Source: Folioceros fuciformis (taxonomy: Eukaryota). Taken from it: a DNA stretch of 51,648 nucleotides. Each line of letters starts with the position of its first letter. Positions within the stretch are counted from its first letter, which is position 1. Position numbers and translations under genes: made by a program. Below the pieces are notes generated by a model. The model did not search any database. It saw nothing but the letters and a program-made list of their open reading frames with translations, and had not been told where the DNA came from. Location: the NCBI GenBank assembly GCA_049999805.1, contig JBNGIO010006279.1, positions 436,167-487,814 on the forward strand. Reading direction: 5' to 3'. Positions 17,564-48,347 of this stretch are shown one piece after another.

Positions 17564-19719
17564 ATGGCTTCGGTGCTGAACCAGAAGCGGCAGACGGAGA
17601 TCGTGCATGGAAGTGGGGTGGAAGGCGGCGGGGGCGGGATGGCCGTCTCCAAGATGATGATCAAGCCTGTGGTTGAGAAGTTTCCGGTCGGGAGGAAGCC
17701 GGCCGGGAAGACTGTGGACAAGGAGTGGAATGTGCGGCCCCGGATGGCGGCTTTGGAGAGCCGGAACCCGATTCGGGATATTGTGGAATCGAAGCTCAAG
17801 GTTCGGAGCTGGATTGACCTCTGGAAGGTGTTGGGGAGGGGTGTGAGAGTGTGTGGAGGTGTTCTACGGTTTGTGGAGGTGTCTTCGTTCTTGCATGTGT
17901 CGTGATCCTGTGTGTCTTACTTTTCTGTGCTGTCTGCCTGCTTTTGCGCCGTGCAGCCGAACCCGAATTTGGGGAAGAAGCCCATTTCTTTGGCGCAAGG
18001 GGATCCCACGGTGTACGGACACCTCAAGGTGCCGGAATCGGCTTGCGCTGCCCTGGCTGAGGGGGCTATGAGCTACAAGTATAATGGTTACGCTCACTCC
18101 GCTGGGATTTTGGAGTGCCGGAGGTAAGACTTCGGCGTTGCCGACCGACGCTGGTGCTAGTGTTTGTCGTTGGCCGACTGTGGGACGGGTTTGCTCATGG
18201 CGTGTGGTGGTGCTCGTCTTGGTGCTGGTGCAGTGCTGTGGCTGACTTCCACTCGGAGCACCTCCCCTTCGAGCTTACCGCAGAGGACGTCGGCATTGTT
18301 GTGGGATGCTCGCAAGCGATCGAGTTCTCGATCGCCTGCCTCGCGGCGGAAGGGAGCAACATGTTGGTCCCCAGGCCCGGGTTCCCGATTTACGACACCT
18401 TCTGTAGATACTACGGTGTCGAAGTTAGATTTTACGACCTTCTGCCTGAGAGGGGTTGGGAGGTGGACCTCGAGCAGGTTGCGGAGCTGGCGGACGATGA
18501 TACGGCGGCCATGATATTGTGCAACCCGAGCAACCCGTGTGGGACGTCCTTCAGTTATCAGCACCTGGCCGAGGTCTGCTCTCTGTTTCTACGCTTTCCC
18601 AAGATTTCCTCATATTTGTCGTTTTCGACTGCCGCTTCATGCTCCCGCCTCTCATGTGGCTGGCCTGGCACACTGCAGATCGCCGCTGCGTGCGAGAAGT
18701 TGAAACTGCCTATAATATCTGACGAGATTTACGAGCACATGCTGTTTGGGGAAAAAAAATTCACTCCTATGGCCACTTTTTCATTGCAAGTGCCAGTGTT
18801 GACTGTCGGAGGAATTTCCAAAAGGTGGTTGGCCCCAGGGTGGCGGTTGGGATGGGTTCTCATCTGTGACCCATGCAGCATCCTCGAGACGAGTGGGGTA
18901 AGAACCTGCCTCAGCCGCGCCTCTCGTGATTACCTGCTTGTGATTCTCTCGCCACGGAGGATCTCAAATTTCCTCGGTTTTTGCGTTCAGGTTGTGGAGG
19001 CCCTCAAGAGAATCATGCAGATGACTATCGGAACCTCTGTTCTCGTTCAGGTAAATTTCTTTCGTTTGCCTCTCTCGTTCTATCTCTTCTGTTCTTCCGA
19101 TTGAATGCTGAGTTGTTGAACAATGTCCCTGTGCAGGCTGCGGTACCGGCCATGCTGCAAAATACTACTGCCGAATTCTACAAGAAAACTATGAAGACTC
19201 TTGAGGACGGCTGCGACTGCTGCTACAGGCGCATCCAAGGAATTGTAGGATTGGATGTGCCGACAAAGCCCGATGGCGCCATGTACATGATGGTGAGTGC
19301 TTCCTCCCTTGACTAGTTATTATTTGCAATCCTTCGTGGCGTTTCGGTTCGTCAGGGTTGAGAATTTTGTGAAGTCATGATGCATATCGAGCCCGTGAAC
19401 TCTTGCCAGGCCAAGGTGGACCCTAGTGCTTTTAAAGATATTTCGGATGATACCGTGTTCGCCGAGAAACTCGTGAAGGAGGAGAATATCGTTGTGCTGC
19501 CAGGTAGGTTGCGCTGCCTACCTAGTGAAATCAGTGTTTGAACGATATGTAGGCACGAGTTTCTTCACTCAGCGAATGACTTGAATGCTTTGTGCAGGCT
19601 CTGCTTTCGGTATTCACAACTGGGTACGTCTGGTTTTTGCGATACCTGTATATATGCTTGAGGAGGCGTTTGACAGGATAGAGGCGTTTTGTCTTCGACA
19701 CGCAGCCGTCCCAAATTAG
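17564..19719 (+). CDS. TAT: Tyrosine aminotransferase (TAT/NAAT/SUR1 family, PLP-dependent), 8 exons
   Basis: Exons 17564-17800, 17957-18123, 18234-18573, 18679-18897, 18991-19050, 19137-19292, 19410-19503, 19598-19719 (GT-AG, in frame). Motifs ISLAQGDPT, YNGYAHSAG, GCSQAI, PRPGFPIY, NPSNPCG, SDEIY and PLP-lysine GGISKRWLAPGWRLGW. Confidence 0.93.
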
Positions 19720-20589
19720 CGGACTGCAATTGAGATCTTACATGCTCATAAATTTGCAGCCATGTGAGGCTATATTTTTTGTGCTAGTTCTGAGTTCTCC
19801 CAAGGCTTGGCTCCTTCCTGGACGAGGAGTCTTTTTCCTCATTTCCCTCCCATTGGATCAGACAACCATCTCTGTAGTGAGTTCGTTAGAAGCAGCCCAA
19901 GCGGACAATGCGACGAGACTGTCGCTGACAAGAGTTTTTTTGGCATATACTCGACAACGCGCGAAGTTGTCAAGGTTGAAGTGTCCTTGGGAAATTTACC
20001 ACAGATCATAACAAGGAGGAGCAACACAGTTGATAGTCATGGTGTTGCTAGTCAAATTTGCTCTTTCTTTCGTTGTACAAAAATATTTTTCCGTTGTAAA
20101 CGGCTCTGAATGGAGAAGCAAACCAAATGAAAGTTTTCGCTAATGTAACTTAGCTCGGCTTTTGCAAAGCAGCACAATACATGTCTACAGCCAACTGTAG
20201 TACCCATTTCGACCTTACTTCCTTAGCACCCATATCAGTAGCACCGAAGTTTTACCCAACGATCTTCACCTCGTACGTCCCTTTGACCACCTTCATAGAT
20301 CAGTTGCTATCCGAATGCTACACCGTCGATCATTCAGTGCAGGACCGAGAACGTAGAAACGATATCTCATAAATCTCGCCTTGGGATAAGGAACCGAAGC
20401 AGAGCTTCCTACCATTCTGCTTTGCAAGGCGTTTCACAATGCACCGAAGAGATCAACGGTCATTGTTAACCTCACGCTTGAAGAAGGAGACAGAACACAA
20501 GCCTAGAGCAACTCAGAGGAAAGCATTGGTACAGAAATGGATCAAAGCACTTGGATTTCAGAGCTCATCCAAAGGAGACGATGTAGGCT

Positions 20590-22684: not shown

Positions 22685-22760
22685 AAACGACTAGGTCGTC
22701 TTGGTTAAGACCGGATAACTCTAGGGGTTCAAAGATTCCGGTTCGAATCCCGGGAACAGT
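22685..22760 (+). pseudogene. Degenerate tRNA-like / Pol III A-B box element (tRNA pseudogene or SINE head)
   Basis: Perfect D-stem GGTC..GACC with TGGTTAA loop and B box GGTTCGAATCC at tRNA spacing. The acceptor and anticodon stems do not pair. Confidence 0.4.
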
Positions 22761-22849
22761 AATTTGAGACCAGCATGTTGCCGGTCCGAATTACAGAGCC
22801 TGTGAACATGTCAGCGTAAAACCGAGCCGAGTGCGCGTGAAGTCTCTGT

Positions 22850-25800
22850 TCAACCAGACATAAGGCCTTTGTCTATGTGAAATCGAGTGAGTGCAGGGTC
22901 TCCTTTCATGGATAGGGAAGGCTTTCGTTGGAAGCCGAGATCCATGGATTCTTCTACACCCATGGTAGAAGTTCTGATGGTGATCTCCAATTTCAGGATT
23001 TCTAGGTAAGCTAATAGGTCTTGGTGCTGCGGATGCCTGCTGTCTCCTACCACAAACGTGTGCACCTCCTGCTCATGTTCGATCCAGCTCTGGCCAGGGC
23101 TCTTCCAGGCACCTGCTCTACGTCTCAGCTGGTCGATCTCCTGTGCGCTCTCCCACATGCCAGCCTCGGAGTAGATGTTAAACATTAGCAGATATGCTGA
23201 ACAGTGTTCTGGCTGTGTTTGGGACGCACGGTTGAACGCACGTCTTGCAAGCTCAACGTTGCCGTGTTTCTGGCACGCACTGAGGAGAGATAACCACATT
23301 GGTAAAGTGGGCTCCACTGGCATTTCTGCCAGCAGATGTTCTACCTTGCTGAAAAGGCCTGCACGAGCAAGGAGGTTGAGAAGACAACCGTAATGCTCGG
23401 TTGTGGGGGCAATGCCATGCTCGTTGGTCATGGATTCGAAGTAGTGCAGGCCTTCGTCCACCTTGCCAGCATGACTGCACGCAGCAAGGACGGAGAGAAA
23501 GGTGATGGAATCTGGAACGATCCCTGTCCTGCACATTTCTCTGTAGGTTTCCTTGCACCTCTCGTATTCACCTTGCTGGGCATAGCCTGTGATAAGCGCA
23601 CTCCAGGACCATAGATCTTTGTGGAGGAGGGAGTCGAAGAAGTTGTGCGCTTCCTCCATGCTTCCACACTTGCTGTATGCATCAATGAGAGCAGTTGCCA
23701 CGATGGGATGGCTTTCCAACCCATGCTTTAACACATCACGGTGAAGCTGAACGCAATTATTGAGGGCTCCTGTATTGCTGCACGCCTCCAGGACGCTCAA
23801 CAATGTGACGTGGTTAGGCGTTACGCTTTCTGCTTGCATCTGTGCATATAATTGTAAAGCCTTCTCTCCTTGACCCCGTTGTGCATGGGCTGTAAGTAGA
23901 GTATTCCATGATACCACATCCCGCTGGCGGGAGCTATGGAAAACATGGTCTGCATCCATGATGCTTCCGCACTTTGCATACATGCTAAGAAGTGCGTTGG
24001 TGAAAAATGTATCCCGAGCATAACCGTGAGAAGCCGCTCGAGCGTGCATACACTTCCCTTTTTGCAGTGAAGCCACTTTCATGCGTTGCCTGTCCACAAG
24101 AGCGTCCTGTTCCTTCTCAGCAAGGCAACCACATGCCTGGACCATGCTTGCAAACGTTCGCTGATTAGGACGGATACCTTCGGCTTGCATCTGCTTGAAC
24201 AGGTCCAACACCTTCCCCACCTGACCCTGCTGAGCGTATGCAGCCAGCATTGCATTCCAGGGCACCACATTTCGCTGGGGCACCCTCCCAAACAATTTTT
24301 CTGCATGGATGATGCTCCCGCACTTGCCATACAAAGTAACAAGACCGGTGCTTAAGAAAGTGTCAGTGTCATAACCCCTCTGAACAGCTTCCGCGTGGAT
24401 GACCTTGCCTATGTGCAACAATCTCACTCGCTTGAAATGGACATCCCGACGGTTCTCGAATTCCTTTTCTGCAAGGCTACAGCAGGCCTGGAGAACGCTA
24501 AGAAAAGTCCGACGATTGGGACTGACGCCCATCTTTTGCATTTCAACGTACAGGTCCAGGGCCCTCTCTCCCTGTTCCTGCTGAGAGTATCCAGAGAGCA
24601 TTGCATTCCATGAAACTATATCCCGCCGGGACAAATTGTCAAACACTTGTCGTGCATTACTCAGGCCCCCACACTTTGCATACATGGTAACAAGTGCATT
24701 ACAGATGAATGTATCCCCATGGTACCCACGTCTATGAACTTCAGTGTGTACAGCCTTGCCCTTCCGCAGTGACTCCACTTTGACCAAAATTCCATCTTCG
24801 AGGGCACTTTCTTCCAGTTCTGCTAGACAACCACAAGCTTGGAGCACACTAACAAAGGTCCGATCATTCGGAGTAAAGCCGTCCTTCAGCATTTGGCTGT
24901 AAAGCTGCCAAGCTTTGTCTCCTTGCTGTCGCTGAGCATGTCCAGCAATCATAGCATTCCAGGACACTGTATCGAGCTGTGCCAAGCCATCAAATACATG
25001 TTGTGCATCAGAAATGCTTCCACACTTTGCATACATATCAACCAGAGCCGTTCCCACAAACATATCAGCCTCGAATCCGTGTTTCACAATATCGACATGG
25101 ATATCCTTGCCCTTTTGCAGGTCCGCTAAGCTACTGCAAGCTTTAAGTAAGTTTACAAAAATGTACAAGTTGGGGTCAACAGCTTCTTCCCGCATTTGCT
25201 GATAGATCGTTAAAGCCTCCTGCCATTGTCCTGCCTTACTGTATCCACAGATGATTGCTGTCCAAGAGAACACAGAGCGAGAGGGCAGCATCTGAAACAT
25301 GTGAAGGCCATCCACAAGGCTACCACATTTGACAAGAGCGTCGACCATACATTCACCCAGATAGAGATTTGATTGTAGCCCATTCTTTACCAAATGAGAA
25401 TGCACTCCCTTTGCCTGAGCGACGTCTTTGTTCTTGATGCACGCCTGCAACAAGTTCTTATACACCTGCACGGAAGGCACACTACCTTCCAGGTCCATGC
25501 GGGCCAGGGCTTCCAACGGTTTCTCAACCTCCGCATGCTTACGATAAGTCTCCACATTAAGACCAGCACCCTGACAGCTCTGTACGCTACAGACAAGCAG
25601 TTCTTACTCCTCTCATCAATTTGCAATACGGAGCTCTCTTGATAAGTCATGTGCTAGGTTTGATCACACAGCACTGATGCTCTGCAAGCTTCGATGGGGG
25701 TTTAGTAGGTACTCACATCTTGGGTGCCTGGCTAGTAATCCCAGCAGTCAAGTCAGACGTAAAGCCATCTGGCCCCCTGACATGTTCGATTAATCTGCCT

Positions 25801-26060: not shown

Positions 26061-26331
26061 GGAAATCTCCAAATCACGTGGAGCAGAGATGCACAAAGCC
26101 CCCCATGATATTAGCTGGGAAACGACCAAGGCAGTAGTAGACGTTAGCAATCGAGCTTTGGATTATCGGTTGCACAGATTCTACCATGTCTGAAGGGAAA
26201 CTGATCGCCGTGCGGAGAGATGGTGGTTAAACATGATTTCTGGTTCAGACATCGAGCTCAGCGCAGATGAGGCAAACTGGTTTTGTAAATTTGTCGAGCT
26301 TAAGTCAAGGCAAACTCTGTCCTCTGGAGGG

Positions 26332-29300
26332 ATGGTGCCGGCGTCTATCCTCGGCAGGTCAGCAAGGCAAGCCTGCAGGTAGGCCCAGTAATTGTTTGCT
26401 TGCCCGCGGGCATGTATCTGGCCGCTTCTGAATCTGGCTTGTAGCTGCTAGAAAGCACATCCCGAATTCCTGCTTGTGTTTGGTTGTCGTAGAAGCAAGA
26501 GCAAGGAAGGGATTTCTGGTAACCGAAACTACGGACAGCCGGGTAAACAAGGTAACAGAATTCATGGATTGGTTGTGGCTACAAGCAACAACCAAGGTTT
26601 GATAAATCTTTGCGCATTGCAGCCAAACCTCAATGATCTGGATTTCGTGCACAGCAAAACCTGGGAGGCCATTGGGCGGGGCGAGGATGAAATGCCATCA
26701 GCAAAAACTGGATTTCAGCCTGGATTCCATTTTGGAGCTCACTGTCAGGGTTTTTCGGGTTCTAAGTACGTCCCTCTTCGAATGAGTCTGAACTGAAGCA
26801 ACGATCATGGCAGGGCACTAGCTTATTTCCCTGCGCCTTGATCTTGCAGGGTATTTCGCCATGGAGGGCCCTTGGAAATCGGAACACGGAGCAGACTCTG
26901 GGAAGAAGGGCAGCTCAGTGAGGATGTTGATGTTTTGGATGCCCTGGTGCATGGAGGATATCACATTCCTGCATCAGTTTGCTATCCTGTCCTCAAGGCG
27001 TGCATTGCAAAACAAGATCTCCCTGCTGGCCGGCGGGTTCATGCACTTGCTGTCAGATTGGGTTATGAGTCAAACACATTTTTGGCCAACCATATCATTC
27101 GCATGTATGGGTCTCACGGGGAGTTGCAAGAAGCCACTGCGGTGTTTTACAAACTTGCAGCACCAGACTCCTTCGTCTGGTCCTCCATCATTCTGGCACA
27201 TGCTAAATCTGGGCAACTTATACAGGCTCTTGAACTCTATCAGCAGATGCGGCAGTTGGATGTGACACCCGACAATTATGTGTTTGCTGCAGTGATCAAA
27301 GCATGTGCCAGCGCAGCGGACCTAGCATACGCAAAGCAGATCCATGCTGACGTTCTGCGTTGTGGGGTTGAATCAAATCTTTACGTTGCAAACTGTATGG
27401 TTGACATGTATGCCAAATGTGGGAGTTTAGAGCATGCCCGCCAAGTATTCGACAATATGCCAAGGCGGGATGTGGTTACTTGGACAGCCATGATGGCAGG
27501 GTACTCTCAGCAAGGACTTGGTTATGAAGCGCTTTCGCTGTATGAAGGTATGCAGGAGGAAGCTGTCACTCTGGCTAATGATGTCACATTTGTGTGCCTG
27601 CTGAAAGCGTGTGCAAGTACAGGAAATCTACGCAAGGGCCAGGAGCTGCATTCTCAGATCCAAGAAAGAGAACTCGGAGGAGATGTTGTTGTTGGCAATT
27701 GCCTGGTTCATATGTACGCAAAGTGTGGGAGCTGGGCAGATGCTCGCGAAGTGTTTGATGCACTCCCTAAAAGAGATGCGGTAACATGGACATCTATGAT
27801 TGCAGGATATGCTGAGCAGGGTCTCTGTCAAGAGGCCCTCGCTCTTTGGGCAAGGATGGAGCAGGAAGGCACCATGTTAGCTGACCCCGTCACATTTGTC
27901 TGCCTTTTGACCGCCTGCATCAGGGTTGGCGCTTTAAATGAGGGCAAGGAGCTCCACTCTCAGATTCGGGAAAGGGGGCTCGAGGCCGTCACGGTTGTTG
28001 GTAACAGCCTCGTGGACCTGTATGCAACTTGTGGCAGCTTAGAGGATGCACGCCAGGTTTTCGATGGATTGTCAAGACGAGATCTGGTGACATGGAATGT
28101 CATGATTGCAGGATATTCTCGGCACGGGTTTGCTCAAGAAGCTCTGCTTCTGTACGCAGAGATGCAACAAGAGGGTATCATCCAAGCTGATCATGTAACA
28201 TATGTTAGTCTCTTGAAAGCGTGTGCCAGGGTTGGAAACGTGGGTCAGGGGAAGGAATTACATGGTCAAATCCAGGAAAGAGGATTTGAAGCCCATGTGA
28301 TTGTAGGCAATGCACTGGTTGACATGTATGCGAAATGTAACAGCTTAGAGGATGCTCGTAGAGCCTTTGACAAAATGGCCTCAAGAGATATGGTGGCATG
28401 GACTACAATGATTGCAGCATATGCTCAACACGGGATAGGCCAAGAAGCACTTGCTCTCTATCAAAGTATGCAACAGGAGGGCGTGGCTCCAGTGGATCAA
28501 GTTACATTGGCATCCCTTCTCAAAGCGTGTGCCAGCATCGGAGCCCTGGGTCAGGGAAAGCAACTCCATTCGCAGGTTCAAGAACGAGGACTTGAAGGTG
28601 ATGTGGTTGTCGGCAGCAGCCTCGTGGACATGTATGCAAAATGTGGCAGCCTAGATGAAGCACATATGGTGTTCGATAGATTGCCAGCGAAAGATGTGGT
28701 GACATGGACCGCCCTCCTAAATGGGTACGCCCAGCACGGTTGTGGCCAGATGGCAATGAAGTTGTTTAGAGAGATGCAGCAGCAGGGAGTCAAACCAAGT
28801 GCTTCAACTTTCAGTTCTCTTCTGGTGGCCTGCAGCCATGAGGGCCTGGTGACTACCGGTCAATACTATTTCAGATCGATGATGGAAGACCATGGCATGG
28901 TTCCGAATGAGTATCATGTGTCTTGCATGGTTGATGTCCTTGCACGATCTGGCCACCTAGATGAGGCAGAAGATTTGATGCGGACCATGCCACCTGGGAA
29001 TGGCCTCGTTGTGGGCTGGACATCTCTACTCAGTGCCTGCAAGGCGTATGGCGACATCGACCTTGCAAGGCGTTGCTTCGACCATCTCATCAAAATAGAA
29101 CCTCAAATTGCAGCTCCATATGTGCTGTTGGCAGATATCTACGCTGGTGCTGGCAAGTGGGCGGATGCAGTCTCCATACAAGCCTTGAGAAAGTCAGCTG
29201 GTGCTTCCAAGAAGCCTGCCATGGCCTGGATCGAGGTGGACAACAAGGTTCACTCCTTTATTGTTGGGGAAAACAGGGCTGACATCTCATGCAAGTTAAG

Positions 29301-29613
29301 AAGTGTAAACCTGCGGGTAGCAGAGAAAGCAGGTTATATTCCGCACCCTGAGCTAACTATGAATCCACCATCAGATAAGGACGATGAAGCTGCCTTGTGT
29401 GGACACGCTGAGAAACTTGCGCTTGCATACGGTCTTCTCAATACTGCAAACGGCACAACTTTGGTGGTCACCAAAAACCTTCGAATGTGCAATGACTGCC
29501 ACAATGGCACCAAGGTGATGTCCAGGATTGAGAACCGAGAGATTATAGTTAGAGATACCCATCGTGTTCACCATTTTGTGAATGGTTTTTGCACATGTGG
29601 TGATCGCCATTAG
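26332..29613 (+). CDS. PLS-class PPR protein with DYW:KP deaminase domain ending DRH (putative U-to-C editing factor); 3 exons (26332-26378, 26493-26765, 26850-29613)
   Basis: Two phase-2 GT-AG introns join R-rich MVPASILGRSARQACR.. in frame to the 913-aa PPR ORF. Motifs KKPAMAWIEV, HAEKLA, KNLRMCNDCH and C-terminus FCTCGDRH. Confidence 0.93.
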
Positions 29614-29832
29614 CAAGAAGGGGTTCTGTATGTTCCCACACTCCTACTCTCGAATCCCTGGACCTCACCAATCTCTGAATACATGTGTAATAGAAGCATG
29701 GAACAAAGAAAAGGCTACTGCACGATTGCTCGCCAGTTGTCGCATATTTGCATTGAGCCTCATTTTGGTTTGGGTAAATGGGTCCAGGAGGCTTGATTCC
29801 CCGCATACCTCCAGCACACAGTTCCGTGAAGC

Positions 29833-33522: not shown

Positions 33523-33729
33523 ATTGGAAATTCGACAGTTGCTCAGAACTTGGGACATGTACCCCCCTTATGCAGCGTTAATCAGTCGCCTAGTTCTCGG
33601 CGACAGTGTTGTGGACTCTACGGATCCATGCAACTTCAAAATCTGTTGTAGGATGAGATCCTGCTATGAAGGGAGCGATCCAGACTCATGCACAAATTAG
33701 AGAACGTCGACTTTAAGCAGAACACTTCG

Positions 33730-33950
33730 GTAAACACGTCGGCAAGCTCAAAAGTAGATGATGCTCCGGCCCGCTTGACAGCCCTGGGTAGGAATGTAGT
33801 CGCATGGAGGGCCACTGGATAGCAGGGTATTCCCAGCAGGGCACACTATGTAGAGCAAGTCTACCATCTTGCAGTACTAGATCCGTGAGAAGAAGGCAGT
33901 GAGGTACGTACCTGAGGCTATAGCGTTTGTCTGTGCCCTGGAGGCCTGTT
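33730..33950 (+). pseudogene. Frameshifted PPR fragment
   Basis: Translates in pieces as ..VDDAPARLTALGRNVVAW, IAGYSQQG and PEAIAFVCALEAC, i.e. broken S/P/L motifs. Confidence 0.55.
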
Positions 33951-36267: not shown

Positions 36268-37080
36268 TCAGAACTTCCAGCATGTTGCTGCTCTCAAAAA
36301 TTCTGCAAAACTCCATGCGCTCGGTGATCTGGACACATCGAGCATCATTGCCTTAAAGTCTTCAAAGTTCACGAGGCCGTCACCATCTCTATCCACAGCC
36401 CTGATCATGGCAAGAAAATCACGAGCAGGTCTTCCTTTCCTGAGGTTCAGGCTCTGGACCACGCCCTTCAACTCGCTTGGCGAGATAAATCCATCATTAT
36501 TGCTGTCAAACACCGTGAAGGCGTCCCGCAGGCATTGTTCCCTCTCCGCCTCATCGATTTCCTCCTTGGACAGACACAAGGAAGCATAGAGCTTCACGAA
36601 CTCGGCATACTCCAACACGCCATCCCCGTTCTCGTCAGCGGAGTTCAATACGGCGTGCGCACGCTCCAAGGCTAGCGACAGATTGAATTTCTCCAAGAAG
36701 GCGACTAGCTCAGTTGTGGATATTCTCTTATCGCCGTCCGCATCAATAAGTTCGAACACCTCTCGCACCTTGGACACATCCGGAACTCCACCCCTGCGTA
36801 ACACAAACATATCCGTCCGTTCCACTGGAGAGCATGAGCTAGCATGGATTTCGCCTCTCCTGCCACCGCAATCGAAATTCGCAAGACTCACGAACCTCGA
36901 AACGTGACCAGTCTCCGCTCCCCTCTCACAACTTTGTTGCTCATCGGACGATGCACGGCACGGATCAGAGGAGCAGGCAGCAGCGATCCGCGGGACGTCT
37001 TGATAATGCCACAACTCCTCCATGTGCTGCTCCACTGCTCGCAGTTGCTCCTCATTCTGCAGGGAGGCAGCATTTGCCAT
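36268..37080 (-). CDS. Calmodulin-like (CML) four-EF-hand calcium sensor with ~105-aa N-terminal extension, intronless
   Basis: EF loops DADGDKRISTTE, DENGDGVLEYAE, DSNNDGFISPSE and DRDGDGLVNFED. Confidence 0.88.
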   Translation of the reverse strand: MANAASLQNEEQLRAVEQHMEELWHYQDVPRIAAACSSDPCRASSDEQQSCERGAETGHVSRFVSLANFDCGGRRGEIHASSCSPVERTDMFVLRRGGVPDVSKVREVFELIDADGDKRISTTELVAFLEKFNLSLALERAHAVLNSADENGDGVLEYAEFVKLYASLCLSKEEIDEAEREQCLRDAFTVFDSNNDGFISPSELKGVVQSLNLRKGRPARDFLAMIRAVDRDGDGLVNFEDFKAMMLDVSRSPSAWSFAEFLRAATCWKF

Positions 37081-37421
37081 TTCGCGATCCGCGACTCAAT
37101 TGCCCAGTGGATTCACGATCACGACACTAGCAGCATATCAAGAGCTGCCAGGATGTTCCAGCTGGTAGGTTCCGCGAACCTTGGAAACATCCCTTTTATG
37201 CAACTGAACGAGAAGTACAGTGCCGTAACTTGCTACGCTTTTTCAACGAAACTGCCGCCGATTTTCAAAAGAAATCACTTCGTGCCTTCCCAGCCGATAG
37301 TTGTGCTAGATATGTGTGCAACAGCACAGAGCACTTGCACATACAGTTTGTCCCAGTTCTAAGTAGTTATATATATATCATATAATAATAGTCCTAAGTA
37401 ATTTTATATATATATATGAGC

Positions 37422-38028
37422 TTCTGAGCAAGTGCATTCGCTTAGTATAGCCAAAGTCTTAGATTCAGGGCCTCGGGTTCAAGTCCAGACAAATCCCTAA
37501 AAAATTCTGAACAAGCACATACATATAGTATAGCCAAAGTCTTAGATTTAGGGCCTCGGGTTCAAGTCCAGACAAATCCCTAAACGATAGGTCAATTATT
37601 TTTGAGCTTGAGAATCAAGCTCAATGCAACTTCATCTGGGTAGGTTGAAAAGAAGCAGTGCCATTCAGAAACCCAGAGGCAAGGCTACAAAGCATAGAGC
37701 TTGTACCTTTCTCATAGAAGAATGGAGGTGGAATCCTTCTCCATAGAAGAGAGTGATGAAGGCGAGCTCACGCAAGTGAGGGAATGAGAGAGGCGGCAAA
37801 AGGGAGTTAGGGTTGTGGGAAGGTGCACCAAGGTCCACGTACATGAGTTTAGGGTTGTGGGAAGGTGCACCAAGGTCCAGGTACATGAGAGGAGAATTTA
37901 TACTAATCCGTCTTTTGTCAAGTTATACTAATCCGTCTCTTGTCAAGTTATACTAATCCGTCTCTTGTCAAGNNNNNNNNNNTACTAATCCGTCTCTTGT
38001 CAAGTTATACTAATCCGTCTCTTGTCAA
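37422..38028. repeat. Patch of tandem repeats: 83-bp x2 (with B box GGTTCAAGTCC), 39-bp x2, 25-bp x5+ spanning a gap
   Basis: tagtatagccaaagtcttagatt..gggcctcgggttcaagtccagacaaatccctaaa at 37443 and 37526; ttagggttgtgggaaggtgcaccaaggtcca at 37808 and 37849; (tactaatccgtctcttgtcaagtta)n at 37901-38028. Confidence 0.85.
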
Positions 38029-38343
38029 GGAGAGTGTGAGAGGAAAACTTAAAGAATTGACACCCTAGCTTGAGTATGCAAGAGTACCTTACCTGTACAA
38101 ACCTGGAAGGAGATCAAAAGAGTGCCTACCTTCTTGCAAAAGTTGTTGGTGCCAAGGCCTCCACTTAGTCTATAAACTCCCATGGCTTTTACATGGCCTC
38201 CAGTAGTCATCCAAAGCATGCAAGGTTAGTAAGTAGAAAGATTGTTGTTCCATATTTGTGTCTGGTCGTGTTCACTTGGAGGAGAGCTGATGATCCTCTC
38301 CTTTTCTTCGACGGTGTGACGGCTACGCTGTGTCCATGTGTGT

Positions 38344-40327
38344 ATGGAGCACAATATTTTCGCCAACTTCTCGTATTGTGGAGATGGACTGGCAAAGGCT
38401 AGTGTCTCGATGGTAAAATTGCCCACGAACGCGTGCTCGGAGATCTCAGCTTCCGTTGTGGAACACGACGATGGAAAGGACGCAGAAAATAGCGGGAAGG
38501 TGCTGCTCTCTGTCAGTAGAGAAATTAGGCAGGTCAAGAAGGAAGCAGAGGAGGAGGAATCTTCTGTTGGCAGGAGCGCTGCGGAGAAGAGGGAAGCAAA
38601 GAGGATAACGTCTTCTGGTCAGAGGAGAGCAGGAAAGTTGGAGGAGTCTGCGACAGTGAAGAAGTTCCGGGTTGCGAAATTGCCCAGCAGGGTTGAGCGT
38701 CACGTGAAGCAGGAGTTGGAGATTGAAGATATGGCGGATGTGAAGACGGAGGTTTTTAGTGCTGGGGAGCAAGCCGATTTCGTGGAAGCTCCCACTGTGG
38801 GAAGCGCGGTGGCTGGACCACCGGCCAATTGGGAAGCTATTCTTGATTTGATCAGGTCTTGTTATGCCAACCAGCCCTCTGGTGTTGAATGTCGATTGAT
38901 ACCTTAGGTGGTCTGTTGCATCTTCTTGAGTTCTGTGTGTGTCCTTGCACTATCCTGATGGACGTTTTAGTGCTCGATGCAGATGTGGAAAAATGTCATC
39001 TGACGTACCGGCTTGTTATGCACCTTTTCTCTAACCTAAATCACATGATACAGAGACATGAGGATAGACCGGAATGCCCCTGTAGACTTGCTGGGTCCAC
39101 AGCAGGTATGGTGTTTTAGTCTGGCTTGTGAGGTTCTTGTGTGACGCTTTTGGAGAAACGAGTGACACGTGCTTCTGCTGGTGGTGTGCTGGTTGAGATG
39201 AACTATGCCAGGTATAACAAGCACGCACCCTTTTGCTTTGCAGCTCATGGATCCTGATGCTCCTGCAGAAACGCAGAGATTTCATGCTCTAGTGGCGGGA
39301 ATGATAAGCTCGCAGACCAGGGATGCTGTAACTGCAGCTGCCATGAGAAGGCTGCATGCCTTGCCTGGGGGGTTGACTGTCAATGCAATTGAAGATGATA
39401 GAAACACCATTGCTACGCTGGCTGAAGTTCTCAAACCAGTTGGATTCTACAGGTGGGAATGCAAGAGCCTGTCACGCCCAGTCTTTTCCAATTAACCCAG
39501 CGCCTTTATCCTTCCTGCTGAATGGCTGATTGAGGACTTATGTTTCACTGCCATCGTGGATCGTAGGCAAAAAGCAAAGCATTTGAAGGGCATAGCACAG
39601 ATACTGTCAAAGCCACCATACAATGGGACAGTCCCTTCTGAACTTGAAGAGCTGGTAAGCCTAGGAGTCCCTGGACCTTTGAGCTGCCCTATTTCTTGTT
39701 CATAGTTTTGGCCGTTGTTGCTGTATGCGTGACTGACCTGCAGCCTTCGCCCCTCGCTCAAAGATAAAACTACCTGGTGTGGGTCCAAAAGTTGCGCTTC
39801 TTGTCATGTGCGTGGCATTTGGAAGGTGAAACAAGCAAGTACCAAGATCCTGATGCAATCATAGCAAGTTGTTGCTCAGTCTGATGGGTGTGATTGGTGT
39901 CACCCTTGACCTGTGCCTGGTTGGTATGCAACGTTGCAGGAGTGAGGAAGGAATTATCGTGGATACGAATGTGCGGAGAGTTTGCTGCAGATTAGGATGG
40001 GTGCCCGAGAAGTCAAGTCCAGAGCAGACACGGAAGGCACTAGAGCCGTGGTTGCCGAGAAATTTTTGGAGAGAGTTGAGCTTCTTGTTCGTGGGATTCG
40101 GTCAGCAGGTCCGTGAGGTGTTATCTTGTGAATTTGTCGTTTGCAGACTTGATTGCTGTCAGCAATTCTGTGTAGAGTGAAAATGTTCGTGTGCGCCATT
40201 GTTACAGGTCTGCAAGCCCGTTTCCCCTCAATGTGCAATCTGCAAAGCGCAAAGCCTGTGCCCCTCGGCATTCATGAAGGTAGAGAGGACAGTTGGCGGA
40301 AGCCGTACAAGTAAGAAGCGTAAATGA
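38344..40327 (+). CDS. NTH: Endonuclease III homologue (HhH-GPD DNA glycosylase/AP lyase with 4Fe-4S cluster), ~7 exons
   Basis: Spliced motifs PPANWEAILDLIR, APVDLLG, RFHALVAGMISSQTRDAVT, LKPVGFYR, HhH KLPGVGPKVA, GIIVDTNVRRV, VGFGQQVCKPVSPQCAICKAQSLCPSAF; stop TGA at 40325-40327. The start codon is uncertain. Confidence 0.88.
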
Positions 40328-41112
40328 ATCAGCGCATCTGTTCCCACTGAAACGCTGATGACGGTGTTCACCAAAGGATATGAACAACTGCTTGCGAAGG
40401 GAGTGGTGATGAGCGGTGCTAAGGACGAACGATTTCTGCCTTTAGAGGACATATCAGTGCAGTATGTTACGAGTCTGCGGCCAGTAGACATTCGAACTAC
40501 TTGTACAAGACTTTAACGTCACTCTGTCTCTTGTATCGCCGGGTACAGGAATTCATTCATGTCATGTTGCCTGTCCATTCACGTCACGTTGCGTTTGATG
40601 CCAATCATCATGAAGCGCTTTTGTACGTGCCATCTGCATTTGCCCTCTGTCAGTACTGAAAGGAGCCAGGGAGCCCATCTTCCAGGAAAAGTGCAAGCAC
40701 AAAGAATTTTTTTCAGGATACAATTCTAATAAATCACAAGGCAGCGCCTGCTCCAATCCCAGAGCCCGGAGGAACACCAGTTCCAGGAGGCAACTGCCAA
40801 CAGACAAATCTATCTCACAGCCACAGATTAAACGAGAAACTAGGACCCCACCATCGCAAGTCGATGCTGGCCTACAACGGACAGGTTTTGTACAAGCTGA
40901 TGCTGTATTCAAGCGATTAACTCCAAAGCTAACACTTCTTGTCATCCGCAAGCTCTAACAAGTCTCGAATTTCAGAAAACAGAACTGTCCATGTTGCTCT
41001 GAGCGTTAGGCTACTTGAAGCCTAACCCACCATGCTGTACTGGACTGAAGTTGTGTGGCCCACAGAAATAAACCACCCCTGCATCTGTGCACGAGATCTC
41101 AGGCCACAGGAC

Positions 41113-42212
41113 TCACATATAGTCTGCGGTGAAGGGAGTGACAAGCGGCTTCCCTCCAAAGTGGGCATCCAGATTGGCAACCACCAGGTTGCCCATCCCC
41201 CGCCTGGTTTCCCAAGTCAGGCTGGCGGCATGCGGCAGAAGGACCACATTGTCCAGACCCCAGAGCTCCTGCGGCACATGAGGTTCGTTCTCATACACGT
41301 CCAACCCAGCTGCTCCCAATCGACCTTCCAGGATCGCGCTCACCAGCTCCTGCTCGTCCACCACAGGGCCCCTGGCAATGTTGATGAGCGTGCCCTGGGG
41401 CCCCAACGCATCGATAATCTCCTTCCCGACGAGGTGGAAAGTCTCCTTGGTCAGGGCACAGGACAGCATCAGCATATCGCAATTCTGCGCCAGCTCCAGC
41501 ACCGTGGAGTAGTGGGTGTAGGGAATCTTGGCCTTCTTGGATCTGGAGTGGTAGGAAATGAGGCAGCCGAACGCCTCCGCCCTCTTCGCAATGGCCAGCC
41601 CGATCCTCCCGAGGCCCACGATCCCCAACCGCTTGCCATTCAGCTGCATCCAACCCGCCCTCAGAACCCATGAGCAGGAGAATAACCAAAGCAAGCAAAG
41701 TGCGGGGCAGAATCAAAGAAAAGTGCGGAGCAGAATCAGGCAAGAGTGCGGAGCAAAATCAAGCAAAAGTGTGTTACCCTGGGAGTGAGGGGAAAGTCGC
41801 CATGAATGGGCCATAAGCCCTTCCGCACATATCTGTCCATGGCGCATACTCTCCGCACAGTGGCGAGCAACAGCGACATGGCCATGTCCGCGCAATCATC
41901 CGTGAGCACATCAGGAGTGTAGGTGACCAGCACGCCCCTCTCCCGACACCGTGGGATGTCGATGGCGTTCACCCCAACACTGAAGGAAGCCACGATCTCC
42001 AGTTTGGGTAAGGCGTCAATGAGCTCCGCGTTGGCTCCCGACGCGTTGGCCACCACAGCCCGGATCGACTGCGCGTGCTCCGCCACGAATGCCTTGGGAT
42101 CAGCCGCCTCCCACATTCTGTAGTGCGTGTACTTGGCGCTGAGCGCCGCCTCCAGGTCCTCCAGCATGGGCTGCGTCTGCAACACACCGGGCTTCTTCCC
42201 CGTGGCCACCAT
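41113..42212 (-). CDS. HPPR: Hydroxyphenylpyruvate reductase / HPR2-type D-2-hydroxyacid dehydrogenase, 321 aa, 2 exons (42212-41778, 41643-41113)
   Basis: [35 protein letters not shown], Rossmann [16 protein letters not shown], and catalytic NIARG / DVYENEP / LPHAAS. Phase-0 GT-AG intron. Confidence 0.92.
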
Positions 42213-43948
42213 GGTCGCAGCAGCGGCAACAAGCGTCCCCCGTCCCCGATCCGCCTCCGCAATGCCCCCCTCCTCCTGGCTCCGGTGCTGGGCTCGCACG
42301 CGGTCGGGAGCAGGGGCGGAGGTGCTCAGTCCGCGATCGGAGACGGAGAAGAGGAATATGAAAGAGACGCCAACAGGGCGCCACCGCCCGCCCCAAAAGG
42401 AGGAAACGGAGGAGGAAGAGTAGGCGGAGAAGACGCAGAAGCAGGCGCGCATCAACGCCTGGCTGCCCTTGCTCCGGGCCTGACACTCCCGTCACCGTGC
42501 GGCCTGCCGCGATCGCCTCCTCCTTCGCTTATTAGAGCGAAGCGCGAATTTTCACGACCCAGGCCAATCATGCTGGGAAGGAAGGAGCGGTAAGAGAGAT
42601 TGGAATTGACCCCATTTCACATGCAATCATGCAGGCAGGCCAGGCCAGGCTAGGCCCCTGGTTCTACCAGCACACTCTCTCCACACTACTAGCACACAAG
42701 CCCAAGTCCCCAGTCTCACCCGAACGCTCGCTCGGTTTCTCCTCCCTTCCCGCCTCTCTCTCCTCTCTCTAGCCGCCCGGAAGTTGGAATGGCCGCAGTC
42801 AACCAGCACGATGCTGCAAGGCTCTGCAGAGGACGCGGAGGTATGTAAAAGAAGCCGTGAAGAGAAAGACAACGGAAAGATGGGGGGAGCGTCCATCTTT
42901 CCGGCGGAAAGAGATTCGGTGGCCGGAAAGATGGAGCGGGTACCATGGTGCGCATTATTGGCAGGAGACCGGCGGTAGGCGGTTGCGTGAGCCACGGCGG
43001 GCCACGTCCTGCACCGTCCACTTTCGCGGCTGCTTCTGCTCCGCTCCGGGGAGAGGGCAGGTGACATGAATGGTTGGGGAGGCTGGGGCGGGCGGACCGA
43101 CCTTTTTTACATGGCCTACGCCAGGTCGTCAGCCCTCGCCTCTCTGAGGCTGCTAGCCCGCCTGCTTCTACATGCTTGTTAACAAACACTTCACACACAG
43201 GGCTGAGCTTGTCGCTACTCTGCGGCAAGTACAGTACCGGCTCTGTTCGTACCTCGTCTCGGAGTTCGGTGTTTCTCAGCCTCGCTTCCCAGATGCTTCG
43301 CTTTCGAGCCGTGTGACTGCCTGATGGACTGGTTCCACTGTAACATTACAACCATCAGCTTGTCTGCACTGCTGTCGAAGTGCCTGCTTGAAGCAAGCAC
43401 GGTGGTTGGAGTGGCGGCCCACGAGAATCGCTCACCTGCCTCTTCGCTCTCTGGCAAGGCGCAGGAACGTTGGAAGGTTGGAGGAACCGGGGTGGGAGTT
43501 GGGCATGGGAGAGGGGTCATTTGACTCAATCCAGCTGGAGGTAACTTGAGCTTTCGTGCTCACAAAGAACAGCAGATCACTCTGACGTGGTAAAATTACA
43601 CATGTTTTCGCAATGTAGTTATTTGATGGAAGTACACCAAAGGGACAAAGGGAGAGCATCCCGGCTTTAGTGGCCAAGTACACTAAAAATCTTAACCTGG
43701 ACATAAGCGAGTAATCCGCGATCGATTGGCAGATCAAAATTCAAGGTCTCAACAGACGCCGACTTTTCCCAGACGCTGCACTGGCTGGAATGGTCGAGCG
43801 GTACTCTCTGTAACGTACAATACAGCCTTTTCCGACTCCCGAAGCAGGGGAGTGGAGAAACCAAATAATGGACCCGATTCCACCGCTGTGGCAGGTTGCG
43901 GCAACAAGTGGAGTGCCACCTGCAGCCGTGGAAGATGGGTCTTCTACC

Positions 43949-46033
43949 TCACAAATGCAGGACGGTAACGCCGGTGATGAATTTCGGCTCCATCTTGTCA
44001 GGTCCCCTCGGGATGATGCTGACTACCAAGGGCTCGGTGCTGGACTCGGAGACGCCGGTTTGAGCAAGGACTCCACTGATGGCTATGCGGAAGTTTTGGG
44101 TGCGCCAGTCCTGATGCTCCACTTCGCCGTTAGGTTTGATAGCGGCGGAAGTGTGAGGAATTTCGTAGAACGTTCCAGCATACTCGGCGATGGTGATCGG
44201 CGTGCTGCTGTCGGCTTCCGGGAGATTTATGAAGATGTCAAAGATGTTCGTCTTCATCATCGGGGTGACGAGCCCCTCGATCTCCAGGACCTCCTCTGCG
44301 ACAGGCGCCAGCCTCGCGGCCTCGGCACCACGCCTGAGCAGGGACTTCACGGGTCTGTTAACCCGGAAGTGAAACGGCTGCCCGCCGATAGTGACCTGAC
44401 TTTGCCCCGGCATGGAGGCGGGCCCCATGACCGGAATACCCGCCACGTGTGTTACTGCCCAGTCGTGGTCAGCCTCCAGAATATTCCAAGCAGGTGCAGA
44501 CTTTCCTCTCCACCACTCGCTGGCCCAAGACGGAAGGACACAATTCACCAACGCACCGATTTTGGACTGTTTCTGCTGCGCCCTAGCCGCGGTTTGAAGG
44601 ATTCTGGAGCCTTGCGACAGCGGGAAATAATTCGCCCAAGAGTTCTCCACCTCCTCGTATCTGTACCGCAATCTCTCCGTCTCCTGGCTGCCAGAGACAT
44701 TCACCACCACCCCGTCGCCGTTCTCGTCAAAGAAAATGAACTCCGTGTCTAGCCAATCCGATTCTGTGGGATTTTGTCGCCGGCCTCCAGGAAGATTGTT
44801 CCACACAGTCCACAACCTATCCAAATTGCAGTGCAATCCGTAGAAGACCGGGTCGCGAGCAGCAGAATAGAAATTCCCCATGTTCTCGTGGTCAGCAGAG
44901 GTGAGATCCGCCACCCAGTCGTGAATGCTGTTGTGCGGAATATACTCAATTGACCCGCCTCCAGGTGCCGCCGGCGTCCCTTCCACAAATTTGTGGCCGA
45001 AGAAGGTGTGAGGGACAGTTGAAAGAAAAATATTCCTGTTCATGCTGATCCTATTGCGCTCGTTCAACTCCGCATCAGAGTAAGGAGAATCCCCTACATT
45101 GAATCATACAAGGCAGAGAGCGTCAGACTGGACCGATTTGGCATCCATTCTCCTCCCGGACATGCTGCAACTCGTCCGTCCCGGAGGATCAGACAGTAAA
45201 TGCACTCAAACCAAAATTGCTACAACCAATCGGACACAAAGATGCACAGCTCATTTCAATTCATTTCACCAAACTACTACCTTGTGGTCTCTGCTCCACA
45301 ATCTGAAATCTCCCAAGTGCAATGCTCGAATTACGTCACACGCAATCCACACTACATCGTCAGCAATGGTTGAAAACTGACCAGAATCCACGATGAGATC
45401 GAAGGGGATATCGATCGTTCGTGGCGGCATGTGGAACTTGCTCCGCAAAGGATCCCCGAGGGCGCTCCACTCAGTATACTGCACGGGGAATCGGTTGGCA
45501 GGATGATGCTCCTCAGCGGCGGTAAGGTTGTCGAAGTTCCAGAAGGGAAGAGCGAAGGTATCGTCGTCGATGAGCTTGGCCAGGATGCGCTCATGGAAGT
45601 AAACATACCAGCGGTGCCAGGGCAGGAAGAGCCAAGACTTGTGGATGAGGAGCACGGTTTCCGGCGCCACGCCCCGCTGAATGAGCGCGTTGTTGCAGTA
45701 AGCACAGTGCATCCAGGCCTGGATGTTGTGCGTCCGGGGATCGTCATCCGGCAGCGCCCGCAGCGCAGCGTAGGCCCGATTGTACTTGTCCCAATACTCG
45801 GTGTCGTTCACCAAGGTGTGGATGGGGCGCCTAACCCGCATCGGCAAGTCTGTTTGATACTGGAATGGCTTCACGGATCGGGGCACCGGCGGGCAGCACC
45901 GGTAGTTAGCGTGCGAGAGCTTGAGCGTGATGTTCCGGCACACCGCGAAATCGGGGGTCTTGAGCGGAGCTCCTGACACGCATTGCACTAGCAAAAGGGC
46001 CAGACTCCATCCCAGCCACCGCATCGTCGTCAT
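43949..46033 (-). CDS. PPO: Polyphenol oxidase (type-3 copper), 598 aa, N-terminal signal peptide; 2 exons (46033-45382, 45093-43949)
   Basis: CuA HCAYC...IHKSWLFLPWHRWYVYFHE; CuB EYIPHNSIH...MGNFYSAARDPVFYGLH; DWL, FDIFIN (KFDV-like) and EYAGTF motifs. Phase-1 intron G|gtcagt...tgtag|GG. N-terminus MRWLGWSLALLLVQCVSG/AP. Confidence 0.93.
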
Positions 46034-47155
46034 CCTGCTGCTCACACTCGTCACTCCTCTCCGGGCTTGCGCATCGAGGATTCAGGTGAGCTCAGATAGC
46101 CGCAGCGGCAAAGGACCTAAGCAATCAACGGCGGCAAAGCCGAACGCTGTGTAGACACAGCCCGGACACTGTCTGGAGAGAAAGGCACACGACAGAGCAG
46201 CTAGCGCGCCTCGTGGCGCAGAAGCACATCAATATAATGCACAGCATTGAACAACTGGCCAGGCGGGCGACTAGACTAGGCCCAGACTCCGCCACGCTTT
46301 CTCCTCCTTGTCTCTCTCAAATAATGGACAGGAATGGAGGAGCACCCGCGAGTTGCGCCTCTTACGTACATACGTACTTTCGGGTAAAGTTCCTTGCACC
46401 TGACACGTTCCGACGTGGCCGACATCCTGCTCCCTGTGACGCCCACAAAGCAACGTTTCGTTTTGCACAGGACGGTCTTGAAAGAAGCGTCACCTTTATG
46501 GAAGCAGGGCCACAGATTGCTTGTGGCATCCATTTTCGCTTTCCAAAGTTCACTTTGCAGGCTGTCTGCCGCACCAGGCACCAAAGGAATCAGGCATGTT
46601 CGATGAACGAATTACTGCACTGCGTGGCAAGTCTCAGCTCCCAGTCTTGTTCAGGGTGTACGAAACTGGTAACAGGATGTGAGGTGGGAATTTGGAGTTC
46701 ACATACTCTATTCGCACTTCTTTCGCACTACTCTGTTCCATTCGGTCATTGGTAGATGAAGAGCGATTTGCTTCATCGGCGAATTGCATGTCAGTGAACT
46801 GTAGCTGTTGTCCAGTTAGATAGTGAGGAAGGAGTTGAATGGAATCATCCCTGTCCTGTTCATCAGGCCGACGCCTGGAATCGACCCAATAAGAGCGTGT
46901 CAAGCAGCAGCCATCTCATGAGTTGTTATAATAGTCTGTTTCGAAACATGGATTAGGTAGAAATCTGTCAGGGACAAATATAAGAAAGAATAAAAAATGG
47001 CCGATAGCGACAGATTCCGTCACATCGCCCGGATTCCCTATCAGAACCGCGAAGACACTGACTAAGAACTCCTGGGAACCTAAAGCTATGCCTGTGAGAT
47101 GAGAAACGATCTCGCAAGCAATATCTACGAAGACCAAAATTGGTTCTGCAGCCAC

Positions 47156-48347
47156 TCACACCTGAGGAGTTTCATGCTTGTAGGAGTAGGGCGCCCCGAA
47201 CAGCACATGGTCATACCAGTCGAAAATTTCAGTCTTCTTCAGACTGGTGACGGCATGTACGCCATAAGCCACGTTGAGCTCCTCGGCTATCTCCGTCTTC
47301 CAGCACAGTTCCGCAGCGCACTCGTCCAGCACCTTGTCCCTCCGGAGGACCTCCACCCACTCCTCGTTTAGACGCGGATTGTCAGTGAGGTAGCCGTCGG
47401 CATTGATCCACCCGCTGGCCCTGAGGGAATTGAACACCGCGATGGACAACTCGGGGGTGAAGCACGGAATGCGCTCGATAAAGATGAGCGGGTAGAGCTG
47501 CATATCCCCACAGACGATGGTGTCGTGGTCCACCCCGAGCCCCGCCACCTGCGAGATGCCATACAGGATGTAGGGCACCAGTTCATCCTTGGCCATGTAC
47601 ACAAAGAGCGTCGGCGGGAAGAGGTGATTGGCCTGATCCAAAGCCTCAGGCCTGCCAGGGGCGACAACAAGGCCGATCGCGTCCAGGTGATAGTACAGCG
47701 CCAGCACCGTGGAAAAGTTCCCGCCGTTAGACACTCCCAGAGACACGATCGGCAGGTCCGCGATCCCCTCCCGGTCCCGCCAAATCTCCAGAATGCTGAG
47801 ATACGCACGCAGGTCGGTAGAGTCCTCGGGAGGCCACATCTGCAAGCACAAACTTAGGTCAGGCCGGGACGGAAAAACGTCTCACAGGCAGCCGGGAACG
47901 CAAACCCTCGACACTCACATCGTACTCGTAGCCCCCACTCCGGATGGCGATCACGTTGCCATAGCCGCGTTGGATGCCCTCGAGGATGTTGAGCCTGTCT
48001 TCCGGGAGACCCGTGCAGACGGGGCACCTGGGCGTCCTATCGAAGTAGCGGAAAGGGTCGCCCCCTCGGGCATGAATCATCACCAGCACGGCCTTGGCGC
48101 CCGGGGTGGTCTGCCAGATGACGTCTCGGCCGTCAATGACCTCGTACACGGGGTCGAAGAGCGGGTCCGGGATGTTGCATCCCACATTGGAGAGCTCGCC
48201 TCGAGCCCGCTCCGTGGGCATGGCGATCTGCAAAGGCTCGCCCTCCACATCGGTGGCGGGCAGAATCCTGGAGGCGTACCCCGGGCACAGGATGGAGAGG
48301 AGCAGCAACGCCAGCATCGTGCACTTGCCCATGGTTTCCCCGGCCAT
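47156..48347 (-). CDS. Signal-peptide alpha/beta-hydrolase-fold protein of unknown function (~370 aa), 2 exons (48347-47919, 47839-47156)
   Basis: Hydrophobic signal MLALLLLSILCPGYAS, oxyanion-region AVLVMIHARGG, CPVCTGLPED, nucleophile elbow LGVSNGG, acid PTLFVYMAKD and His EELNVAYGVH. Phase-0 GT-AG intron. Confidence 0.8.

Follow-up and report, generated by a model that had tools for sequence, protein, structure and literature searches.

Four enzyme genes of tyrosine, phenol and ester chemistry within 31 kb of the Folioceros fuciformis genome, probably neighbours by chance

In a stretch of 51,648 nucleotides from the hornwort Folioceros fuciformis (contig JBNGIO010006279.1; the whole of this stretch is referred to below as the window), 31 kb hold the genes for a tyrosine aminotransferase (TAT), an HPPR/HPR2-type reductase, a polyphenol oxidase (PPO) and an alpha/beta-hydrolase. 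A preliminary description of the same DNA had reported these four unrelated enzyme genes and had proposed that they form a biosynthetic gene cluster for rosmarinic acid. All four were found at the positions first given. The reading that we favour, and consider probable, is a plainer one: these are four ordinary, intact enzyme genes that have become neighbours by chance in a compact genome and do not make up a selected cluster. A co-functional cluster is disfavoured because unrelated genes lie between TAT and the reductase gene, TAT is single, the reductase is of a conserved type, PPO is multi-copy, the hydrolase belongs to an old and widespread family and the compartments of the products appear to differ. 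If PPO and the hydrolase did supply missing steps of rosmarinic acid synthesis alongside TAT and the reductase, no phenolic gene cluster of this kind would have been seen in a bryophyte before, and the four genes would represent an independent route to rosmarinic acid that is free of P450 and BAHD enzymes; otherwise this part of the genome is gene-dense in the ordinary way.

Identity and transcription of the four genes

Gene structure and family membership were observed directly for each of the four genes (Table 1), and the identities given to them in the preliminary description were borne out. The exon borders of TAT were placed by homology with GT-AG sites and not from RNA. The encoded protein matched Pfam Aminotran_1_2 (E 2e-35), and its top four PDB matches were all TATs (3pdx at E 4e-55, followed by 3dyd, 1bw0 and 4ix8). 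Its best database match was the cDNA-derived TAT of Anthoceros agrestis (AaTAT; P0001), with which the GT-AG spliced model is identical at 433 of 464 positions and equal in length, 464 aa also being the published length of AaTAT (PMC8041713). Based on this match, the TAT of the window is classified as the orthologue of the biochemically characterised AaTAT. Searches of A. agrestis databases are reported to have yielded one TAT isoform only (PMC8041713). A single TAT must also supply plastoquinone and tocopherol synthesis, and the gene is for that reason not a recruited duplicate.

The reductase carries the Pfam domains 2-Hacid_dh (PF00389) and 2-Hacid_dh_C (PF02826), and its best solved relative is the HPPR of Coleus (3ba1, E 5e-72). 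Over its full length it is identical to Coleus HPPR at 187 of 312 positions, to Physcomitrium HPR2 at 176 of 317 and to one unnamed transcriptome protein at 263 of 321, and its identity to moss, lycophyte and angiosperm members is 55-63%. Homologues at E <= 1e-30 made up 6008 of the 8000 candidates scored and came from all land-plant groups. The G-x-G-x-x-G segment and the Arg, Glu and His positions align with those of Coleus HPPR, and we take them to have the roles usually given to them in this family. As read from the chosen ATG, the protein has no N-terminal extension, and no SKL-like C-terminus was seen. These features place it in the conserved land-plant HPPR/HPR2 type. Members of this family use 4-hydroxyphenylpyruvate as well as hydroxypyruvate and glyoxylate (PMC10978636), and for an HPPR, an HPPR2 and a peroxisomal HPR that A. 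agrestis has, two papers refer to a thesis (PMC10978636, PMC13710588). With TAT a single gene that feeds primary metabolism and the reductase of a conserved type, neither would resemble a recruited duplicate.

The PPO protein consists of three domains (Pfam Tyrosinase, PPO1_DWL and PPO1_KFDV). Its CuB region, histidines included, aligns with the PPOs of walnut (5ce9), grape (2p3x) and apple (6els), and the translation of exon 1 contains three CuA histidines and the cysteine of the H-C-x-x-C segment, which brings the copper-binding histidines to six; the assignment of the CuA histidines and cysteine presumes the motif as we know it. By its domains and copper ligands the protein is recognisable as a complete plant-type PPO. 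It has the three-domain architecture in common with PPOs of known biosynthetic role or structure, namely aureusidin synthase, larreatricin hydroxylase and walnut PPO. The N-terminus, like that of the hydrolase below, was judged by eye; it is short and hydrophobic, of the endoplasmic reticulum signal type, and is not a plastid transit peptide with a thylakoid transfer signal. The secretory type of this N-terminus resembles that of the vacuolar aureusidin synthase (PMC7010833), whereas most seed-plant PPOs carry the plastid and thylakoid signals that are missing here. PPO families can be large: Physcomitrella has 13 members and Marchantia 64 (PMC7010833).

The hydrolase had been described as an orphan, a label that has to be given up. 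When 1.84 billion representatives were searched exhaustively with HMMER, 277 relatives were identified at E <= 0.001, 73 of these at E <= 1e-10, the best of them 36% identical, and these extend from streptophyte algae to grasses, Solanaceae and protists. Twenty representatives of the family were looked up, of which 13 had an organism name and seven did not. The named relatives are from algae (two tagged Mesen1, which was read as Mesotaenium, and one each from Klebsormidium and Closterium), land plants (Calypogeia, Riccia, Diphasiastrum, Selaginella, Lycium (with Anisodus), Eleusine and Setaria) and protists (Phalansterium and Abedinium). The family thus named also occurs in plants that are not known for rosmarinic acid. 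Other searches returned no relative: none of 441 candidates scored in a word-based homologue search with exon 2, a metagenome scan gave 70 pattern matches and no relative among them, and a PDB search with the single sequence found nothing under E 0.1. Pfam assigned the window hydrolase to no family and matched none of the 35 aligned family members at E < 0.001; at weaker E values, Esterase_PHB was matched by one of the 35 (E 0.055) and BD-FAE by three of the 35 (E 0.005 or weaker). No characterised member of the family was found.

The Ser-Asp-His triad of the hydrolase was assigned from column conservation. In alignments of 35 and 37 sequences, conservation is 90% or higher in each of the three columns. 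The corresponding residues of the window protein are Ser180 (codon 47729-47731), which lies in a G-V-S-N-G-G nucleophile elbow, Asp228 (47585-47587) and His338 (47255-47257). Its N-terminus is signal-peptide-like, and the family shares a C-x-x-C-x-G-x-P-E segment, with conserved cysteines of a kind typical of secreted proteins. An AF2 model of the Calypogeia homologue (P0243; pLDDT 90.3) has the alpha/beta-hydrolase fold, and a model of exon 2 of the window hydrolase (pLDDT 93.5) has the strand-elbow-helix arrangement at the Ser. Neither VIA nor Foldseek singled out an esterase subfamily: in VIA many esterases were found at similar Z (18-21), and Foldseek with the exon 2 model gave no match at E <= 0.001. 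The look-alikes found in the Atlas were generic bacterial alpha/beta-hydrolase clusters (0.91-0.94), and these are to be taken as a lead only. The window protein is a serine alpha/beta-hydrolase of a widespread eukaryotic family that is absent from Pfam. Two side products of the analysis are accordingly a corrected annotation of the four genes and a widespread plant alpha/beta-hydrolase family outside all Pfam models.

Evidence for transcription came from contigs of a sequencing run, X1, whose RNA label was given by guess and which contained 0.59 of the sequence words of the window, two runs of the same study containing next to none. The introns 41644-41777 of the reductase gene, 45093-45380 of PPO and 47840-47918 of the hydrolase gene were skipped exactly by X1 contigs with 0 mismatches, each with GT..AG in the orientation of its gene. 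The first of these introns is spanned by a contig over 41467-42428, and on PPO a contig of 2152 nt covers 43700-45092 and 45381-46138, again with 0 mismatches. Since introns with GT..AG borders are skipped exactly, the X1 contigs represent spliced RNA. In the X1 sample the reductase, PPO and hydrolase genes were transcribed, and the splicing confirms the introns of all three. The depth of contigs in this single run does not rank the genes. Additional PPO-like X1 contigs were placed in pieces and at less than 100% identity, and PPO is multi-copy. The contigs of runs X2 and X3 matched only PPR repeats and a short piece of PPO. A single X1 contig (39823-41496) connects exon 2 and the 3' part of the reductase gene with the final exons of an HhH-GPD gene that converges on it; at their 3' ends, the transcripts of these two genes either overlap or meet.

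Arrangement of the genes and linkage elsewhere

The reductase, PPO and hydrolase genes are consecutive and head-to-tail on the minus strand, as had been reported, and the distance from the reductase stop to the hydrolase start was measured as 7,235 bp, against a reported 7.2 kb. The gaps between transcript ends within this trio are ~1.3 and ~0.8 kb. TAT had been placed ~21 kb away; as assembled, 21,394 bp separate its end from the stop of the reductase gene, and the figure stands in that sense, but an assembly gap of 10 N lies in between and makes the true distance uncertain. This gap is bordered by a short direct repeat, which is visible in translations of the open reading frames (ORFs) at ~37780-38070. 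The interval between TAT and the reductase gene had been said to contain six unrelated genes. That count holds roughly, as five genes could be assigned to families (three to PPR and one each to EF-hand and HhH-GPD glycosylase) and there are family-less ORFs in addition, giving at least five unrelated genes.

In having three adjacent non-homologous enzyme genes, with a fourth and related step nearby, the locus is like the known plant biosynthetic gene clusters. It differs from them in that PPR, EF-hand and DNA-repair genes lie among its members, and in that TAT is a single-copy gene of primary metabolism and not a recruited duplicate. No PAL, C4H, 4CL, BAHD, CYP98 or other phenylpropanoid gene was identified by Pfam among the 32 window ORFs scanned. 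Elements of the sequence ACCWAMC, which we take to be the consensus of AC-type MYB sites, were not enriched in the window (18 seen, 21.0 expected), and none was upstream of TAT, the reductase gene or PPO.

Close neighbours are to be expected in genomes of this kind. The genomes of Anthoceros contain 24,700-25,800 genes in 117-133 Mb, and those of A. agrestis and A. punctatus are described as 'highly collinear' (PMC8075897). At this density (~1 gene per 5 kb), any gene has several enzyme genes within 30 kb. Outside the hornworts, TAT-like and HPPR-like genes were on separate contigs in five of the six other plants for which both were listed with contig data (Ceratodon, Adiantum, Protea, Tetracentron and Malania). 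The exception was Ensete ventricosum, in which a TAT/NAAT-like gene (OPV22_011629, P0118) and an HPPR-like gene (OPV22_011611, P0198) are 18 locus tags apart on one contig of 68 Mb; this is a second and unrelated case in which members of the two families lie close together, possibly by chance. Among 79 metagenome loci with an HPPR-like gene, none had an adjacent homologue of TAT, PPO or the hydrolase, the best identity being 75%, with no match of hornwort grade.

Rosmarinic acid and the case for a shared function

For the substrates and compartments of the four enzymes, and for the absence of a function common to all of them, we infer the following from homology and from the N-termini. TAT would convert tyrosine, and L-DOPA, to the 2-oxoacid, a reaction demonstrated for the A. 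agrestis enzyme, with which it shares 93% identity. The reductase, being 60% identical to Coleus HPPR, would turn 4-hydroxyphenylpyruvate, and probably hydroxypyruvate too, into the 2-hydroxyacid. The two very likely act in series in the cytosol and supply both primary metabolism and rosmarinic acid; the 21 kb between their genes would not be needed for this serial action and most likely was not selected. PPO would be a copper oxidase of the secretory pathway, one of a multigene family, with a probable role in general phenol oxidation in the wall or vacuole, and the hydrolase a secreted serine esterase that probably takes part in general ester hydrolysis in the same places. It is likely, then, that the compartments differ, given that TAT and the reductase carry no targeting signal and look cytosolic and that PPO and the hydrolase look secretory.

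Several lines of evidence weigh against a chance neighbourhood. TAT and HPPR are consecutive steps towards the hydroxyphenyllactate half of rosmarinic acid. For genomes of 117-133 Mb, the sizes known from Anthoceros, the chance of a given gene being within 21.4 kb of another is ~3-4 in 10,000, and it is ~3-7 in 10,000 if there are one or two HPPR copies. The spliced contigs of the reductase, PPO and hydrolase genes were all from the one run X1. In a comparison of the hydrolase family profile with the PDB, the marginal best matches were feruloyl esterases (8iy8 at E 2e-4 and 9j07 at E 0.02). AaTAT prefers L-tyrosine and also accepts L-DOPA (PMC8041713), the latter fitting an early hydroxylation. 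The hornwort lineage accumulates rosmarinic acid, and two vacant steps of its pathway would suit a PPO and an enzyme of the esterase fold (PMC8891189; PMC12774947). The roles first proposed for PPO and the hydrolase are vacant in the hornwort literature. Finally, the controls with contigs of plants other than hornworts and with metagenomes exclude only a deep conservation of the linkage and not a cluster specific to hornworts.

Rosmarinic acid has evolved separately in the hornworts, in ferns and in two families of angiosperms. According to PMC8891189, 4-hydroxyphenyllactate is not accepted by AaHCT6, the BAHD nearest to rosmarinic acid synthase, and the sole CYP98 of A. agrestis hardly hydroxylates the precursor ester; the authors look to 'other enzyme classes' and to a 3-hydroxylation at an earlier point. 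Papers of January and October 2026 still treat the formation of the ester and the aromatic 3-hydroxylation as gaps (PMC12774947; PMC13710588). In Anthoceros, the places of the ester-forming enzyme and of an effective 3-hydroxylase have stayed unfilled after studies aimed at the obvious candidates among BAHDs and CYP98 (PMC8891189; PMC12774947; PMC13710588). The window shares the first two enzymes of the tyrosine branch with the pathway of Lamiaceae and Boraginaceae (TAT, HPPR, a BAHD rosmarinic acid synthase and CYP98A), at the identities to AaTAT and Coleus HPPR given above, and differs from it in having no BAHD or CYP98 gene. In the texts searched, there was no report of the angiosperm pathway as clustered, and no description of a hornwort cluster of this kind was found in a survey that in part covered titles and the beginnings of abstracts and did not extend to the 2025 pan-phylum hornwort genome paper, the A. 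agrestis thesis or any supplements.

The low chance of TAT and the reductase gene lying so close would count for much had the hypothesis been stated beforehand. It is no longer small for a pair that emerged when thousands of windows were screened for any suggestive neighbours from one pathway; in a genome of ~25,000 genes, one or two such pairs of pathway neighbours would be expected by chance.

With a chance neighbourhood as the favoured reading, the best of the alternatives, in our judgement an unlikely one, is a functional module of the reductase, PPO and hydrolase, whether or not TAT is part of it, in which 4-hydroxyphenyllactate is made, 3-hydroxylation or oxidative coupling follows and a caffeoyl ester is transferred or trimmed. 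Consistent with such a module are the short gaps in the head-to-tail arrangement, the occurrence of all three spliced transcripts in X1 and the match between the enzyme classes and the missing hornwort steps. PPOs with specific biosynthetic roles exist, aureusidin synthase and larreatricin hydroxylase among them (PMC7010833). A weak link of the hydrolase profile to feruloyl esterases also speaks for the module; the next matches were an acetylxylan esterase and a PHB-depolymerase-type esterase (5x6s, 8daj; down to E 0.06), and the profile taken as a whole gives a weak hint of chemistry on hydroxycinnamate or acetyl esters. The window family shares with these esterases its fold, its G-x-S-x-G elbow and, following strand 3, an HG-type segment, but the sequence match is marginal and fold searches rank unrelated esterases equally. 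The hydrolase may also be compared with the A. agrestis caffeoylshikimate esterase AaMAGL3, which is likewise an alpha/beta-hydrolase and acts on hydroxycinnamoyl esters. AaMAGL3 differs in belonging to the MAGL family, which the window family matches only at E 0.27-0.47 (monoglyceride lipases), and it does not hydrolyse rosmarinic acid (PMC12774947). Further points against the module are the wide distribution of the hydrolase family, the frequency with which three enzyme genes will stand side by side in a dense genome and, as judged by eye, the contrast between a reductase with no targeting signal and a PPO and hydrolase with signal-peptide-like N-termini.

In a second alternative, quite unlikely in our estimation, only PPO and the hydrolase belong together, as a secreted or vacuolar pair that frees o-diphenols from hydroxycinnamate esters and oxidises them in wound browning, defence or wall remodelling, and not in biosynthesis. 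The signal-peptide-like N-termini of both proteins and the cysteines of the hydrolase family would agree with this, as would the secreted nature of the feruloyl, acetylxylan and PHB-type esterases that are its profile relatives, and PPOs are reported to be among the genes upregulated in A. agrestis under nitrogen starvation (bioRxiv 10.1101/2024.05.22.595400). Against this, adjacency is the sole link between the two genes.

The full four-gene cluster for rosmarinic acid or the tyrosine branch, as first proposed, we consider very unlikely. It draws on every point in favour of the trio and adds to them a TAT, 21 kb off, that is orthologous to the proposed entry enzyme of the pathway, as well as the low a priori chance of the proximity of TAT and the reductase gene. 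Opposed to it are the unrelated genes and the assembly gap between these two, the need for TAT, the sole isoform reported for A. agrestis, in primary metabolism (PMC8041713), the lack of PAL, C4H, 4CL, BAHD and CYP98 genes among the ORFs scanned and the count of AC-type MYB elements given above.

Its most specific form is highly improbable, namely that PPO is the missing 3-hydroxylase (from tyrosine to L-DOPA, or from hydroxyphenyllactate to dihydroxyphenyllactate), that the hydrolase is the missing ester-forming transacylase, using an activated caffeoyl ester in place of a BAHD, and that both form one cluster with the reductase and TAT. PPO and the hydrolase are nevertheless inexpensive candidates for the two missing hornwort steps, and it is from this that the moderate interest of the locus derives.

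Other features of the window

The coordinates of the four genes are collected in Table 1 together with those of the genes that lie between or near them.

Table 1. Genes and assembly gap in the window, with the evidence on which each was assigned (positions count from the first nucleotide of the window).
Feature	Position	Strand	Evidence or remark
TAT gene, 8 exons, 464 aa	17564-19719	+	Pfam, PDB, homology to A. agrestis TAT
TAT exons	17564-17800, 17957-18123, 18234-18573, 18679-18897, 18991-19050, 19137-19292, 19410-19503, 19598-19719	+	
HPPR/HPR2-type D-2-hydroxyacid dehydrogenase gene, 2 exons (41778-42212; 41113-41643), 321 aa	41113-42212	-	Pfam, PDB, X1 contig
PPO gene, 2 exons (45381-46033; 43949-45092), 598 aa	43949-46033	-	Pfam, PDB, X1 contig
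Alpha/beta-hydrolase gene, putatively secreted (signal-peptide-like), 2 exons (47919-48347; 47156-47839), 370 aa	47156-48347	-	X1 contigs, HMMER family
PPR gene	22850-25603	-	Pfam PPR families
PPR gene, DYW	26842-29613	+	Pfam PPR, DYW_deaminase
PPR gene, E/E+	29830-33522	+	Pfam PPR, E_motif
EF-hand (calmodulin-like) ORF	36268-37095	-	Pfam EF-hand families
Assembly gap, 10 N	37973-37982		Between TAT and HPPR
HhH-GPD (endonuclease III-like) gene, convergent with HPPR	39202-40327	+	Pfam HhH-GPD on two exon ORFs
Further PPR gene, outside the TAT-HPPR interval	5949-9458	+	

For the HhH-GPD gene, an X1 contig identified plus-strand GT..AG joints at 39823/39938 and 40105/40205. The window, of 51.6 kb, contains four long PPR genes without introns, three of which have DYW or E/E+ ends; counted by motif, a DYW deaminase end was noted in two of the four and E or E+ motifs in two. 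These genes attract thousands of partly matching X1 contigs, and of the 4,928 contigs that were placed on 28901-48900 most fell on the PPR part. A second assembly gap, of 100 N, is located at 15033-15132 in the region of a ketoacyl-synthase-like gene (ORF 13355-13906, minus strand). A long ORF at 9990-12023 on the plus strand encodes a mu-homology domain (Adap_comp_sub, muHD) and has no relation to the question of a cluster. At the left end of the window, a stretch on the minus strand (153-698) gave a weak match to RVT_1 (E 0.004, under the cut-off) and may be a decayed retroelement.

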